A stretch of DNA of 61,605 nucleotides, counting the filler, from Candidatus Woesearchaeota archaeon (GTDB lineage Archaea; Nanobdellota; Nanobdellia; Woesearchaeales; BM511), in assembly GCA_023266675.1 (NCBI GenBank). It is 4 parts of 4 records of this genome, joined end to end, with 100 filler letters (N's around TTAATTAATTAA, not from the genome) between each part and the next. Parts side by side here need not be neighbours in the genome. Positions count along the whole stretch, not along the records: positions 7,142 to 31,171 come from JAHFPP010000011.1; 3 more parts are not named here. The stretch is one strand, 5' to 3'. Within the stretch, counting starts at the first letter, position 1. Each line of letters opens with the position of its first letter. The position numbers were made by a program. Of the stretch, positions 21,001 through 24,000 are shown piece by piece.

Positions 21001-24000
21001 TTATATAAACGCAAATATACCTAGGGATAATAATGCATATATGACTGGAAATCTTAAAAATGACGGCCTTTTAGTATTCTCAAATGATTATATAATTAGA
21101 GAAGGAAAGCTTTTAGAGCAAAGACTACTTAATCCATCAGAAACAGCAAATGCTACACAGCAAAAAAGCTATCAGGAAAAACTTAATGATTATCCATCAA
21201 GATTTGCAGAAAGTTTTTACACAAATATTTCAGTAAAATTTAATCACAATAATAAACAGTATGATATTCAGCCAATGAATTTTGGAAATTTAGACAGCAT
21301 ACTAAATCTAAGATAAATTCTTAAATTGTTATTATTCTTTTAACTGAAGGCAAAAATGCATTTGGTTTCTTTTTTAATTCGTCAGAAATTGCCTGTTTTG
21401 TAAACCATTTTATCTCTGAAACTTCAGTTTTATCTATTTTAAAATCTTTAACATTCTTGTTTGTAGTCATATAATACCACTGGGAAAAATAATTCCATTT
21501 TCCATTCACAAGGTGCTTGTCTCCCTTAACAGGATACATATCAGTTAAGCCCAGTTCTTCTTTTGCTTCTTTGATTATATTTGTATAATATGTTTCGCCT
21601 CGCTCTACAGTGCCTGCAACTGACGGACCCCATTTTCCCGGGTCATGGCTTTTTGTCATTGCTCTTTTTGCAAGAAGCAACTCTCCTTTTGAATTTGTTA
21701 TCCAAAGAACTGCCACCCTGTAAATGTCTTTAGCTGCTATTTTCTCTCTTTCTTTGTACCCGACTGTTTTATCAAGTTCATTTACGATTATTATTTCTTT
21801 AACCATGTTTATTACATCATCTTTAAGTTTCCTGTAAGTAAATCAATCTTTTCTTCATCATCAGGCCCTATTGCGGCGCACGTTTTTGTACCTGGCGCAA
21901 CAACTGTGCGTCCAGCATCAGTAATCAGTGAAACAGCAAACCCCATATCCTTTGCTTTTTGAAAGAATTTTATAAGCTCTTTTTCGTCGCTAACCTTAAG
22001 CACGACTTTCTTCTGCCCGCATCCATGCCACTCGTTAATCTTTGATTTATCAGATTTTAATACAGCTTCAACGGATGCGTGAGCAACCTGAGCTGCCAAT
22101 TTTCCCTTTGGAAGCTTCAAGTCATCCCTTGCAAGAATTACCTGTTTTAATTCGCTCATGCAGTCCAAATAACTTCTTCATTTTATAATCCTTTCCAAAA
22201 AGCAAGCAATATTTGACATGATTGAAATAAAATTCAAAACGTTTATAAGAAAAAGCATGTTTTATAGATTCATGAGCGAAGAAAAGATGTTTTGGGCGGA
22301 CCACATCGCCCTTGACCTGAAGAAAAGGATTGAAGAAGACCCTTACACTAAAGAGATTTATGAAAAACACGGACTTCTTATATACGACGAAAAAACACCT
22401 TCAGGAAAAATTCATATAGGCTCTGGGCGCGGATGGGTAATCCACGATGTTATTGCAAAAGCATGCAGAAAAATTGGTCTTAACGCCAAATTCATTCTTG
22501 CGTCAGACGACATGGACCCATATGACAAGCCAAACAAAGAATTGCCTGAATCATTCAACAAGTATCTTGGCGTGCCTTTTAGAAATATACCTTCTCCAGT
22601 TGAGGGTTTTAAGAGTTTTGCCGAATACTATTTCTTGGATTCAGTAGAAAAGTTTCCTGAAGTTGGTATAGAATGTGAATTTGAATCTACAGGAGAGAAT
22701 TATGAAGCAGGAATATTCAATGAAGCAATAAAAATAGCGCTTGACAACTCATCAAAAATAAAAGACATTTTTGAAAGAATGTACAAAAAACCATACAACA
22801 AGATACCATTTAATGTTATATGCGAGAAATGCGGAAAAATAGCAACTACAAACGCAGTTGCTTGGGATAAAAACAAGGAACTTTTACATTACAAATGCGA
22901 AGAAGACCTTGTTAAATGGGCGAAAGGCTGCGGACACGAAGGATGGATTTCACCATATAATGGAAACGGAAAGTTTCCATGGAAAGTAGAGTGGCCTGCA
23001 AAATGGTTTTCAAGAAAAGTAATCTGCGAATATGGAGGAAAAGACCATTTCTCAAGCGGCGGTTCAAGAGATATTGGAGTATTAATCTCAACTGAAGTTT
23101 TTGGTTACCCGTCACCTTATCCATCTGAAGGAAACAAGGCAGGAATTGGTTACGAATTTTTCCAGGTTGGCGGAAAAAAAATGTCAACATCAAAAGGAAC
23201 AGGGGTATCATTCTCTGATGTTGTAAGAACGCTTCCACCACAAATGTTAAGGTATCTTCTTGTAAAAACTAGGCCAAATGCTGTCATTGATTTTGACCCT
23301 GAAGGACGAAATGATTTAATATTATTATTTGAACGCTTTGACAAAACTGAAAGAATATATTTTGGATTTGAAGAAGGAGACGAACGAGAAGAGCTTAACA
23401 GCAAAAGAATTTATGAATTATCACACATAGGAAAGATAGCAGAAAAGATGCCAGTTCAGATACCATTAACTTACGCTTCACTTGTGATACAGGTAAGTCA
23501 GGATAAAGAAGGTGCAATAAAACTTCTTCAACAATCAGGACACCTTCCAAAAGACATTGAAGGGATAGATTTGCACGGCGTTACAATGAGACTTAATGAC
23601 GCCAAAATGTGGGCAGAAAACTTTGCTCAAGAGCAGTATAAGTTTAATATAAACACAGAAGTGCCTAAATTATCTCTTTCATTAAAACAAATATTTGTGC
23701 TTCATGAAGTTGCTGAGATATTAAAGAGTTCAGATACCATTACTGATGATGAGTTGACCCAGAAATTCTTTGATACATCAAAAGCAAACGGACTTTCACC
23801 AAAAGAATTCTTTGAAGCAGCATACAAAGTTTTAATATCAAAAACCCAAGGACCAAAGCTTGCTCACTTCATCTCAACAATAGGCAAACATAAAGTCGCA
23901 GAGATGTTTGAAAAAGTTGAATGACAATTTAATAATGTAAAAAACAATGATTGTTAAAATAAAGTACCATATAGTATATTCAATTTATATTAGTGTACTC

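Follow-up and report, generated by a model that had tools for sequence, protein, structure and literature searches.

The genome of Candidatus Woesearchaeota archaeon GCA_023266675.1 (the genome under study, hereafter G000; other G-numbers are genomes of the same order compared with it) encodes two intact lysyl-tRNA synthetases (LysRS) of unrelated folds; we think it likely that one organism truly holds the pair, and that the two genes differ in history and probably in role. Around the class I gene the order PTH2, LysRS, RimB-like peptidase and RimK is conserved, a place that we call the slot, and the class II gene falls in a distinct class II clade, which we call clade X. To our knowledge, LysRS is the only aminoacyl-tRNA synthetase that comes in two unrelated folds; the replacement of one fold by the other has been debated since 1997, and the arguments have drawn chiefly on distant genomes. 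That one genome can have both is already known, the presence of both LysRS1 and LysRS2 being described as a 'transition stage' in passages of Shaul, Nussinov and Pupko 2006 (PMC1475646) on Methanosarcina mazei, M. acetivorans, M. barkeri, Bacillus cereus and Treponema pallidum.

Two intact LysRS genes and their surroundings

The window, that is, the whole stretch of 61,605 nucleotides that was analysed, consists of contigs C38, C40, C41 and C42 joined by spacers and holds the class I gene; the class II gene, on contig C20, lies outside it (Table 1). G000 itself is a small archaeon of groundwater type. The class I gene translates into 550 aa free of stops, in a frame that is open from an ATG at 22218, and its product scores 383.7 bits against TIGR00467 (cut-off 147.55) and 299.8 bits against PF01921 (cut-off 27), with no other real PF01921 match in G000. 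Residues 10-513 of the solved class I LysRS of P. horikoshii (1IRX) align with it at E 5.4e-76; its HIGS faces HVGN and its KMSTSKG faces KMSGSKG, and we take the former of each pair to be the HIGH-type and KMSKS-type class I signature motifs. The C-terminal anticodon-binding part is aligned as well (PF19269, 24.3 bits). The closest database relatives are 86% and 83% identical, the branch of the gene is short, and the clade to which it belongs, I-B, has an SH-aLRT support of 100 in the class I tree.

The class II product scores 599 bits against TIGR00499 (cut-off 427.6) and 664.1 bits against NF001756 (cut-off 468); models for AspRS, AsnRS and EpmA reach 84-229 bits on it, each under its own cut-off. 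It has an OB anticodon-binding domain (PF01336, residues 57-133) and a class II core (PF00152, 150-490), and aligns end to end with 3A74 (residues 6-491 of the latter), including the FRNEG and GGLG.G.DR stretches, which are presumably class II motif 2 and motif 3. The only other PF00152 match in G000 is a bacterial-type AspRS on C78. By translation, profile scores and structure-sequence alignments, both genes are thus intact, as the survey's finding had stated.

Table 1. Features of the class I LysRS locus and the class II LysRS gene of G000 (positions along the window, except for the class II gene, which is placed on its contig)
Feature	Position	Strand	Evidence
NUDIX hydrolase beside PTH2	21321..21806	-	PF00293 61.8 bits
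Peptidyl-tRNA hydrolase PTH2, left slot edge	21812..22168	-	PF01981 129.9 bits
Class I lysyl-tRNA synthetase, clade I-B, slot occupant	22272..23924	+	TIGR00467, PF01921, 1IRX alignment
RimB-like retropepsin-type aspartic peptidase, right slot edge gene 1	24377..24757	+	PF05618 53.5 bits
RimK-family ATP-grasp ligase, right slot edge gene 2	24726..25853	+	PF08443 153.9 bits; TIGR00768 185.6 bits (cut-off 143.4)
Lit-family protein	25861..26505	+	PF07314 72.2 bits; 43% homologue, same order in G163
TrmI/GCD14-type tRNA methyltransferase, the survey's neighbourhood marker	26511..27251	-	PF08704 90.7 bits; 67% to G163, collinear
Class II lysyl-tRNA synthetase (LysRS2, clade X)	G000:C20:1351-2835	-	494 aa; TIGR00499, NF001756

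The neighbourhood of the class I gene is collinear in the family-mate G163 (TrmI-Lit-RimK-RimB-like-LysRS1-PTH2), where a class I LysRS at the same place is 62.5% identical to the G000 gene, in line with the 62-76% identity of the flanking genes; the proposal that this gene was inherited therefore stands. PTH2 and LysRS are divergently oriented in both genomes. The PTH2 of G000 is 76% identical to that of G163 and 69% to that of G229, relative to which it is inverted in a DNA-level comparison. A stretch of ~4.1 kb (17701-21806), including the NUDIX hydrolase gene, is missing from the collinear G163 locus, and there the PTH2 homologue directly adjoins the homologue of 16827-17543. NUDIX hydrolase genes lie near both LysRS genes of G000. 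The RimB-like peptidase matches the NCBIfam models RloA3 and RimB under their cut-offs. Around the class I gene, matches to promoter and terminator consensus sequences were no more numerous than in shuffles, inspection of the 450-bp AT-rich spacer 3' of the gene revealed no nameable feature, and Rfam gave no match at gathering score across the whole window.

On C20, the class II gene is part of a tightly spaced cluster of six same-strand genes (ORF151, Lrp-type regulator, Orn/Lys/Arg-family decarboxylase, ORF93, LysRS2 and GNAT), with spacing from a 4-bp overlap to a 41-bp gap, much as the survey had described it. The regulator gene, two genes upstream of LysRS2, is of the Lrp/AsnC type (PF13404, PF01037), and 305 bp, including an ORF of 93 codons, separate the decarboxylase gene (OKR_DC_1, PF01276, 121.2 bits) from LysRS2 downstream. 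Top NCBIfam matches of the decarboxylase are lysine, arginine and ornithine decarboxylases, all far under cut-off, and its closest solved relative, 2X3L, is a family member without an assigned substrate. A scan of 18 C20 ORFs revealed no amino-acid/amine antiporter, nor any other transporter family. Synteny with this operon extends to G345, of family f131 (LysRS2 65%, decarboxylase 46%, Lrp 33%); the maintenance of an operon with regulator and decarboxylase at 33-65% identity in another family argues for selection on the linkage. The clade X copy of G181 also has a decarboxylase and an Lrp gene alongside, and a metagenomic relative (62%, in two samples) has two Lrp genes upstream of LysRS2, and LysRS2 and enolase on one contig, as in G000. 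A decarboxylase lies beside 3 of the 14 clade X genes, so the decarboxylase link is local to a sub-branch. A genome-contig search gave only five bacterial loci, four in Firmicutes (45-48%) and one in Patescibacteria (40%), which serve as an outgroup only and are uninformative on the donor.

The G000 bin is a MAG of 83 contigs, with the two genes on different ones, and another genome called dual, G387, owes its call to a 1.2-kb contig; a binning artefact, with C20 or C40 drawn from another co-occurring Woesearchaeote and no single cell holding both genes, would account for these facts. We find this scarcely credible for G000, since the bin is 95.86% complete with 0.9% contamination, both contigs are typical in composition (ranks 11 for C20 and 33 for C40 of 76 contigs in tetranucleotide distance from the genome mean), and no second copies of the C20 and C40 markers enolase, Cbf5, PTH2, RimK and TrmI occur in the bin, which also has one class I gene, one class II gene and no second slot. 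Cbf5 shares a gap-free stretch of C20 with LysRS2 (the N gap is at 20056) and is 71% identical to that of G163, compared with 63% for G229, 62% for G052 and 59% for G345, values in keeping with the taxonomy; the C40 genes, too, are closest to G163, which bears out the earlier assignment of both contigs to one lineage. G345, moreover, proves that the combination exists on one DNA molecule, with class I and class II genes ~8.6 kb apart on a single contig that has no N. For genes on two MAG contigs, composition, marker copy number and marker affinity point to a single organism.

The LysRS slot and its occupants

Among 401 genomes sampled from the order (with G000 as one of them), there are 182 class I matches (180 above cut-off) and 206 class II matches (204 above cut-off), with both classes in nine genomes (~2%) and neither in 22. 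One dual call is doubtful, that of G387, whose class I gene is a 182-aa piece on a 1232-bp contig. The survey had taken the two classes to be mutually exclusive elsewhere in the order and G000 to show a rare two-enzyme replacement state. Its pattern for the family of G000 (f1) was reproduced, with class I only in G163, class II only in G229 and neither found in G052, but exclusivity proves to be a sampling result given nine dual genomes; likewise, the state is rare but not unique, with eight more dual genomes among 400, and the idea of such a state was published in 2006. The RimK homologue of G052 begins at base 38 of its contig C3, so that the LysRS site of its relatives runs off the contig and 'neither' here reflects an assembly gap. 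For annotators, 'neither LysRS found' in such MAGs can mean a contig break at the slot.

The occupant of the slot varies among relatives, being class II or a member of one of three deep class I clades (I-A, I-B and I-C). PTH2 homologues adjoin LysRS of class I or class II, and the RimB-like peptidase is kept beside both classes. Of 55 class I loci, 24 have slot neighbours at a distance of 3 kb or less (I-A 15/35, I-B 7/15, I-C 2/5), as do 67 of the 148 class II loci outside clade X. These counts are lower bounds given a flank of only 1.5-1.6 kb for most loci, and they use categories for clade X and the slot set after the trees were seen; they also include related and hence non-independent genomes, so that Fisher p-values make the contrasts look stronger than they are.

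Within family f1, G229 has the order PTH2-classII-RimB-RimK where G000 and G163 hold class I, with flank homology to G229 evident also at the DNA level. The class II gene of G229 is not the counterpart of that of G000, a structure that the survey had missed: it belongs to a different clade and sits in the slot where G000 keeps its class I gene. This placement suggests that most class switching in the order looks like a cassette swap at one slot. The boundaries are sharpest in genus g75, in which G172 carries class I, and G289, G237 and G072 carry class II; the flanks on both sides share 73-80% DNA identity, and homology ends within ~70 bp of the gene ends, with none across LysRS. In this one genus the LysRS swap is cassette-clean. 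Genus g44 (family f41) is mixed as well, with both classes in G040, class II in G158, G226 and G282, and class I in G321, G355 and G385; we discarded it as a source of a swap boundary, as the closed genomes G158 and G321 share no flanks by tblastx and RimK is far from LysRS.

A tree of the RimK flank (73 rows) needs at least 11 class I/class II changes, and in the RimK tree the f1 rows (G000, G163, G229 and G052) form one clade (SH-aLRT 99) despite the differing class of the adjacent LysRS. In f1 and g75, homologous flanks on both sides surround unrelated genes of the same function, which is the mark of non-orthologous gene displacement in situ, a concept said to come from Koonin and co-workers. 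The slot resembles other such displacements in its conserved flanks around an unrelated gene of the same function at the same position; what sets it apart is that the displaced pair is the textbook class I/class II LysRS pair, recurring at least 11 times, even between congeneric genomes. We found no description in the literature of a cassette swap of LysRS classes at a fixed slot. We infer that the class I enzyme of G000 would be the inherited housekeeping LysRS in a conserved translation-related slot, and that this slot would hold whichever LysRS a lineage uses, with homologous flanks between which one cassette has probably replaced another many times; the direction of swaps, like gain versus loss of clade X, is judged from parsimony and identity comparisons.

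Clade X and the two-enzyme state

The class II LysRS of G000 falls in clade X with full support (UFBoot 100, SH-aLRT 100), and this clade was unchanged once 98 further class II genes joined the tree, which leaves out 46 of the 206 class II genomes. None of the 14 clade X genes is in the slot, compared with 67 of 148 non-X class II genes, and class I co-occurs with 6/14 clade X genes compared with 3/148 non-X class II genes. Two more clade X members (in G022 and G181) are second class II copies, paired with slot-type class II. The class I partners in dual genomes come from each of the three class I clades, their 8 rows requiring 8 changes. These patterns are consistent with clade X being a separate class II lineage that moves between families, often joining a slot enzyme, class I or class II, as the second LysRS of a genome; its arrival in G000 would have been within the regulator-decarboxylase operon.

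The nearest homologue of the G000 class II LysRS is that of G345 (65%), the family-mate G229 gene being 46% identical, and a tree uniting the class II genes of G000 and G229 is rejected (AU p 0.0006). G345 also has the linked decarboxylase, but searches of the three family-mates G163, G229 and G052 found neither this gene nor clade X. The gene looks laterally acquired on these grounds, as had been suggested. Were clade X instead old and vertically inherited in the G000 lineage, independent losses would have to be assumed in the family-mates and in other relatives. Gene loss is indeed common in such reduced genomes; LysRS2 and enolase share a contig in the 62% relative, as in G000; and in G205 the class II LysRS adjoins Cbf5, which is also on C20. 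We nevertheless hold vertical descent to be decidedly improbable: between G000 and G345, LysRS2 (65%) is more similar than the better conserved Cbf5 (59%), the reverse of the relation between G000 and G163 (LysRS1 62.5%, Cbf5 71%), and clade X copies in different families are as much as 87% identical (G181 of f90 and G242 of f86). Dual genomes are also isolated species within their genera or families, surrounded by relatives without clade X (G102 and G251 for G190, G086 for G242, and the three family-mates for G000).

Families f5 and f125 have clade X as their only LysRS and must rely on it for charging tRNA-Lys. It is an enzyme of full housekeeping grade, for which an 'accessory' part in G000 is not a given. 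In the two f5 genomes examined, G268 and G004, the slot is empty, with only 275 bp and 126 bp, respectively, separating PTH2 from an ORF in which RimB and RimK are fused; a search of these gaps for LysRS relics gave only short chance matches (E >= 0.005 in a tiny search space). Clade X could thus take over fully, and the dual state appears to be one real replacement route beside direct cassette swap.

This end state would also follow from a plain transitional redundancy, in which a chance gain brought in a class II gene that duplicates the work of class I, has no regulation or role of its own, and leaves G000 midway between acquiring one LysRS and losing the other. Such is the published view of dual-LysRS genomes in the parts of Shaul et al. 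that treat them (PMC1475646), and it fits the confinement of dual genomes to single species within genera or families and a clade X gene whose score (599 bits) is that of a normal LysRS and whose branch is not long. We consider it unlikely for G000, where the tight operon with regulator and decarboxylase is kept at 33-65% in a different family and the class I gene has no signs of decay (a short branch, relatives at 86%), and clade X also stands beside slot-type class II in two genomes, G022 and G181, that are not changing class.

We also considered a non-canonical job for clade X in G000, be it Ap4A synthesis, another aminoacylation substrate, or action with class I LysRS on a special tRNA. 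Excerpts of PMC2916919 link dual LysRS to the special tRNAs tRNAPyl of M. barkeri and tRNAOther of B. cereus, LysU is named as the main Ap4A synthase of E. coli in portions of PMC5078493 and PMC9437257, and NUDIX hydrolase genes occur near both LysRS genes. In G000, however, ARAGORN found two ordinary tRNA-Lys genes, UUU on C18 and CUU on C76, among an incomplete recovery of 21-28 tRNA genes; no special tRNA (tRNAPyl, tRNAOther) or Pyl machinery was found by ARAGORN, Rfam and the PylS profile (best PylS match 37.9 bits, cut-off 178), and the C20 cluster has no tRNA gene closer than 20 kb. A third tRNA-Lys candidate of ARAGORN, with a 76-nt intron, on C65, was set aside, having no Rfam tRNA match at E up to 0.01. 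With an anticodon-binding domain and all core regions that align with canonical LysRS, and with clade X as sole LysRS in f5 and f125, a non-canonical job seems very improbable. We favor instead the reading in which both enzymes would charge the same two tRNA-Lys species (UUU and CUU), with the clade X copy as a putative second enzyme whose expression would depend on conditions and on the Lrp-type regulator. Such an enzyme could be useful when the linked decarboxylase uses up lysine or makes an inhibitory amine, by analogy with E. coli LysU.

For the order as a whole, a wider reading, which we hold with about equal belief and doubt, is that the slot between PTH2 and RimB/RimK was refilled at least 11 times, probably by flank recombination between related genomes, and that mobile clade X, often with Lrp and sometimes with decarboxylase, supplies a two-enzyme intermediate that can end as the sole LysRS with the slot empty.

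Known systems and what the slot offers

In E. coli, lysU presumably lies close to cadBA on the map. Sections of PMC5320599 report that lysU is strongly repressed by Lrp, and those of PMC5078493 that LysU is induced at low pH and is inhibited less by cadaverine than LysS is. As with LysS/LysU, the second LysRS of G000 is a full-length class II enzyme, and its gene is associated with that of a putative Lrp-family regulator and with candidate lysine-family decarboxylation chemistry; unlike in E. coli, where the two are close class II paralogues, the primary enzyme of G000 is class I, of an unrelated fold, and the link to Lrp and decarboxylase is one of gene adjacency. Aminoacyl-tRNA synthetase genes also occur in decarboxylase clusters of Firmicutes, with tyrS beside tdcA-tyrP and hisS with the histidine decarboxylase operon, and the role proposed for them, in the relevant part of PMC3315439, is to keep charging while the amino acid is consumed. 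The likeness is an extra synthetase gene placed next to a decarboxylase gene whose product may act on the amino acid that the synthetase uses; the differences are that G000 is an archaeon, that its cluster has no antiporter gene, and that it has a gene for an Lrp-type protein where the Firmicutes examples, as far as that account describes them, are regulated by T-box or pH.

With the dual genomes treated by Shaul et al., to the extent that their text covers them, G000 shares two unrelated classes intact in one genome, read as a replacement intermediate, and an archaeal class I background that gains a bacterial-type class II gene by lateral transfer. It differs in being a member of a lineage new to this list, the Woesearchaeales (DPANN), in which no Pyl system or special tRNA was found, in having a class II gene from a roaming clade and in a regulator-decarboxylase operon, and in belonging to an order that also shows class I or class II in one slot, and an empty slot. 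The right flank of the slot recalls the RimB-RimK (RimABK) ribosome-modification pair of bacteria and the RimB-RimK hybrids described in parts of PMC11957791: a retropepsin-like peptidase is followed by a RimK-family ligase, and the fused ORF in f5 resembles the hybrids. In G000 and its relatives, however, the pair occurs in archaea and beside LysRS, a link that the bacterial system lacks.

The order offers a graded series, in which members of one family, and even of one genus, differ in the class that fills the slot, dual genomes from six families all draw on a single class II clade, and take-over by that clade goes with an empty slot. The replacement pathway thereby becomes testable, through kinetics, inhibitor sensitivity, Lrp-type regulation and recombination breakpoints. 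A candidate reason to keep a second LysRS is the protection of lysine charging during activity of the linked decarboxylase, a role like that proposed for LysU of E. coli. If the order-wide reading is true, and we see it as evenly balanced, one order would hold every stage of class I/class II replacement, in natural genomes that can be compared base by base.

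Two LysRS genes, very probably of one organism

The class I lysyl-tRNA synthetase (LysRS) gene of G000, the archaeon studied here, lies on contig C40 (window 7142-31171), which is spacer-joined in the window to C38, C41 and C42 of the same metagenome-assembled genome, and its frame is open upstream as far as an ATG at 22218. Its product scores 383.7 bits against TIGR00467 (cut-off 147.55) and 299.8 bits against PF01921, and aligns with residues 10-513 of the Pyrococcus class I LysRS structure 1IRX; the two class I signature positions in this alignment read HIGS and KMSTSKG. The class II LysRS, encoded outside the window on C20, scores 599 bits against TIGR00499 (cut-off 427.6) and 664 bits against NF001756, has an OB anticodon domain and a class II core, and aligns end to end with 3A74. 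Translation, profile scores and structure alignments thus bear out the survey's finding that G000 encodes both enzymes in complete form, and both genes are real and family-typical. The sole further class IIb match in the genome, on C78, is another bacterial-type synthetase, a long AspRS with a GAD insertion domain (PF02938; NF001750, 814 bits).

Coordinates of features in G000 and of loci in related genomes
Feature	Location	Strand	Remarks
Class I LysRS	window 22272-23924	+	550 aa without stops
PTH2	window 21812-22168	opposite to LysRS	left of class I LysRS
RimB-like retropepsin peptidase	window 24377-24757		right of class I LysRS
RimK-family ligase	window 24726-25853		right of peptidase; then Lit, TrmI
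Extra DNA relative to G163	window 17701-21806; 14853-15749		beside slot
tRNA-like gene	window 11726-11822	-	97 nt
783-aa ORF	window 7942-10293	+	no Pfam match
1285-aa ORF	window 27305-31162	-	no Pfam match
ORF151	C20:5082-5537	-	no family
Lrp/AsnC-type regulator	C20:4636-5085	-
Orn/Lys/Arg-family decarboxylase	C20:3137-4594	-	485 aa
ORF93	C20:2845-3126	-
Class II LysRS (LysRS2)	C20:1351-2835	-	494 aa
GNAT acetyltransferase	C20:806-1339	-
Guanylate-kinase-like ORFs	C20:7311-11581	+	408, 399, 613 aa
AspRS	C78:343-2106	-	bacterial type
LysRS pair, G354	L088 (C38:1451-10208), 3584-4900 and 4992-6563	- and +	91 bp between
LysRS beside Cbf5, G205	L137 (C38:764-5227)		class II
Fused RimB-RimK, family f5	L151 5892-7373; L153 4582-6099	-; -	493-505 aa

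The bin (1.22 Mb, 83 contigs) has a completeness of 95.86% and a contamination of 0.9%, and we found no second copies of the C20 and C40 markers sought in it (enolase, Cbf5, PTH2, RimK and TrmI). By tetranucleotide distance to the genome mean, C20 ranks 11 and C40 ranks 33 among the 76 contigs that reach 5 kb, and the 6-kb LysRS2 cluster scores 0.0193, against a median of 0.0178 and an upper quartile of 0.0222 for random 6-kb windows. Cbf5 and LysRS2 share one gap-free stretch of C20, whose sole run of N is at 20056-20065; Cbf5 is 71% identical to that of G163, 63% to G229, 62% to G052 (all of the same family, f1), 59% to G345 and 52% to G261, and with identities so graded by relatedness it tracks taxonomy, as the C40 genes do. 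In G345 a single N-free contig carries genes of the two LysRS classes at a distance of ~8.6 kb, and the combination is therefore real on a single molecule.

We searched 401 genomes of the order Woesearchaeales, G000 included, with TIGR00467 and TIGR00499. Class I was found in 180 genomes above the cut-off (182 at E <1e-20) and class II in 204 (206 at E <=1e-60); neither was found in 22, and nine carry both (G000, G040, G120, G190, G242, G306, G345, G354 and G387), although G387 is doubtful, its class I gene being a 182-aa piece on a contig of 1232 bp. The survey had met no dual genome among 43 others, which we now regard as a sampling outcome; G000 is not unique. It had also recorded neither class in G052, where again none was found, but the RimK homologue begins at contig base 38, and the expected LysRS position falls beyond the contig edge. 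The order-wide counts take in the unpublished genomes G112, G121, G132, G206, G208, G210, G245, G274, G315, G335, G337, G370 and G374; none of the key examples named here depends on them.

Other arrangements were seen in the order. In G354 a very divergent class I LysRS (TIGR00467 352 bits, tree branch 1.76) and a LysRS-like gene of class II, also divergent (438 aa; TIGR00499 310 bits, below cut-off), stand head to head in a locus that yielded no tRNA, and a canonical class II LysRS lies separately on C44 of that genome; the adjacent pair recalls two enzymes acting jointly on special tRNAs. DPANN archaea also have LysRS proteins, of both classes, that are fused to PF03483 (B3_4, PheRS-beta-type) and measure 715-852 aa (class II P0022 and P0031; class I P0173, P0202, P0210 and P0218). 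Long ORFs in loci L091, L096, L097 and L100 are possibly also PF03483 fusions, and the same may hold for the long LysRS ORFs of G387 and G158 (641 aa), of G321 (879 aa) and of G385 (723 aa).

A slot in which the two classes are exchanged

The class I gene occupies a conserved place, here called the slot, between PTH2 and genes for a RimB-like peptidase and RimK. The locus of the nearest relative, G163, is collinear (identities: TrmI 67%, Lit 43%, RimK 62.5%, peptidase 66%, class I LysRS 62.5%, PTH2 76%). In G229 the order is PTH2 (69% identical to that of G000), a class II LysRS (46% identical to the G000 class II enzyme), peptidase (58%) and RimK (60%); at the DNA level peptidase and RimK align with G000 at 65% and PTH2, inverted, at 68-75%, whereas LysRS does not align. 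In a RimK tree of 73 rows, which include the unpublished G337 and G274, the four f1 genomes form one clade (SH-aLRT 99) despite their unlike slot occupants, and the tree needs at least 11 changes between the classes, or 13 over five states, the starred branches alone forcing fewer.

Class I sequences fall into three deep clades (I-A, I-B and I-C) with ~31-35% identity between them (SH-aLRT 100 for each of I-B and I-C). Slot neighbors lie within 3 kb of 15/35 I-A loci (G337, G274 and G206 among the positives and G210, G208 and G132 among the negatives being unpublished), 7/15 in I-B, the clade of G000, and 2/5 in I-C, and within 3 kb of 67 of the 148 class II loci outside a clade that we call X; these are lower bounds, because flanks reach just 1.5-1.6 kb at most loci. 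The linkage of LysRS to RimB-RimK thus holds whichever class is present. The cleanest swap is in genus g75 (family f72), where G172 has a class I-A gene, on the opposite strand, and G289, G237 and G072 have class II, within flanks of 73-80% DNA identity; homology ends at L020:1454 and L020:3113 versus L144:465 and L144:1993, ~70 bp or less from the gene ends. The pattern is one of in-situ non-orthologous displacement, a recurrent cassette swap.

The extra DNA beside the G000 slot relative to G163 holds two Pfam-negative ORFs (584 and 631 aa) and a NUDIX hydrolase, with an IS240-type DDE transposase farther off. Elsewhere in the window, ARAGORN calls a tRNA-like gene whose anticodon loop is read as four bases (cagg), and no Rfam tRNA reaches the gathering score across the window; the call may be an intron-bearing archaeal tRNA or false. 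Repeated segments of 40-57% identity link the 1285-aa and 783-aa ORFs to one another and to ORFs on C41 and C66.

A roaming class II clade

In class II trees rooted on five bacterial sequences, the G000 gene falls in clade X (23 rows; UFBoot 100 and SH-aLRT 100 in the careful run), a placement that marks it as not of the slot type. Clade X gained no member when 98 further class II genes were added; the enlarged tree covers 160 of the 206 class II genomes with 162 genome-derived sequences (the unpublished G245 is a non-X row). A single clade of the G000 and G229 class II genes was rejected (log-likelihood 152 lower, AU p 0.0006).

Fourteen members of clade X are genome-derived: six are in class I genomes of six families (G000, G345, G190, G306, G242 and G120), two are second class II copies (in G181, and in G022, where the slot holds the other copy), and six are the sole LysRS found (four in family f5, two in f125). 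No clade X gene among the 14 occupies the slot, versus 67/148 other class II genes (Fisher p 0.0004), and 6/14 accompany class I, versus 3/148 (p 1e-5); these p-values are a guide only, as the groups were drawn after the trees were seen and kinship among the genomes makes them non-independent. The class I genes of dual genomes are spread across all three class I clades (8 changes in 8 rows); the added part is the clade X gene.

Clade X was not found in G163, G229 and G052, relatives of G000, in G102 and G251, relatives of G190, or in G086, a relative of G242. Between G000 and G345, LysRS2 (65%) is more conserved than Cbf5 (59%), whereas in the vertical pair G000-G163, LysRS1 (62.5%) is less conserved than Cbf5 (71%). 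Together, tree placement, patchy presence in relatives and cross-family identities support the view that clade X has spread laterally among lineages of the order, and, with the G163 collinearity and the AU rejection, uphold the survey's view that class I was inherited and class II acquired. The copies of G181 (f90; L160, C1) and G242 (f86; L085, C27) are 87% identical, which reflects a very recent transfer or else misbinning, the latter copy being on a 4.4-kb contig of a 64% complete bin. A third recurrent LysRS context in the order is seen in G205, where a non-X class II LysRS adjoins a Cbf5 homologue (62.5% identical to that on C20).

Proposed role and fate of the second enzyme

The six C20 genes from ORF151 to the acetyltransferase form an operon in which neighbors overlap by up to 4 bp or are separated by up to 41 bp, and no transporter was found in the cluster. 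G345 shares the Lrp (33%), decarboxylase (46%) and LysRS2 (65%) genes and a divergent AbrB/MazE-domain gene (25%), and is the one genome of five searched with a homologue of the decarboxylase. The clade X copy of G181 adjoins a decarboxylase (29%), with Lrp (38%) nearby; upstream of a 62% identical metagenomic relative are two Lrp genes, a GNAT-like gene and methyltransferases, and no decarboxylase. Farther along C20 are three tandem paralogous ORFs with a guanylate-kinase-like domain; two share 77% identity over 223 aa, and leucine-rich repeats are added in the third.

G000 has two ordinary tRNA-Lys genes (UUU and CUU), and neither Pyl machinery nor an extra tRNA was found in its genome. Both enzymes would charge tRNA-Lys, with the slot enzyme as the probable housekeeping LysRS. 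By analogy, the clade X enzyme would be co-expressed with the decarboxylase under the Lrp-type regulator, and could sustain lysine charging during lysine depletion or the build-up of an inhibitory amine. The model here is E. coli LysU, whose gene is strongly repressed by Lrp (PMC5320599) and which is induced by low pH and inhibited less by cadaverine than is LysS (PMC5078493); tyrS and hisS inside decarboxylase clusters of Firmicutes (PMC3315439) offer a second parallel. As the sole LysRS of f5 and f125, the clade X enzyme appears fully competent, and G000 may just as well be heading for the loss of class I.

Two genomes were examined from f5, where clade X alone supplies LysRS: the gap between PTH2 and a fused RimB-RimK ORF is 275 bp in G268 and 126 bp in G004, and neither gap holds a LysRS gene or recognizable relic. 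We propose that f5 is an end state, with clade X as sole LysRS and the slot emptied. Alternatively, the f5 arrangement could be the ancestral one, predating LysRS insertion into the slot, but unrelated LysRS genes would then have had to insert repeatedly at one point. The fused f5 ORFs match RimB-RimK hybrids described in bacteria (PMC11957791).

Dual LysRS is established in three Methanosarcina species, B. cereus and T. pallidum (PMC1475646, PMC2916919), and such genomes have already been interpreted as a transition stage (PMC1475646); the survey's two-enzyme state holds for G000, but it is not unique in the order and the transition idea is not new. We found no literature on LysRS classes in Woesearchaeota or DPANN, or on an in-situ LysRS swap, most subscription journals being outside the scope of the search. 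G000 thus adds a new lineage and a new variant to a phenomenon already known, and its value lies in the order-wide series to which it belongs: a slot whose occupant can be swapped, a second-copy clade that roams with a regulator and sometimes a decarboxylase, and a proposed empty-slot end state.
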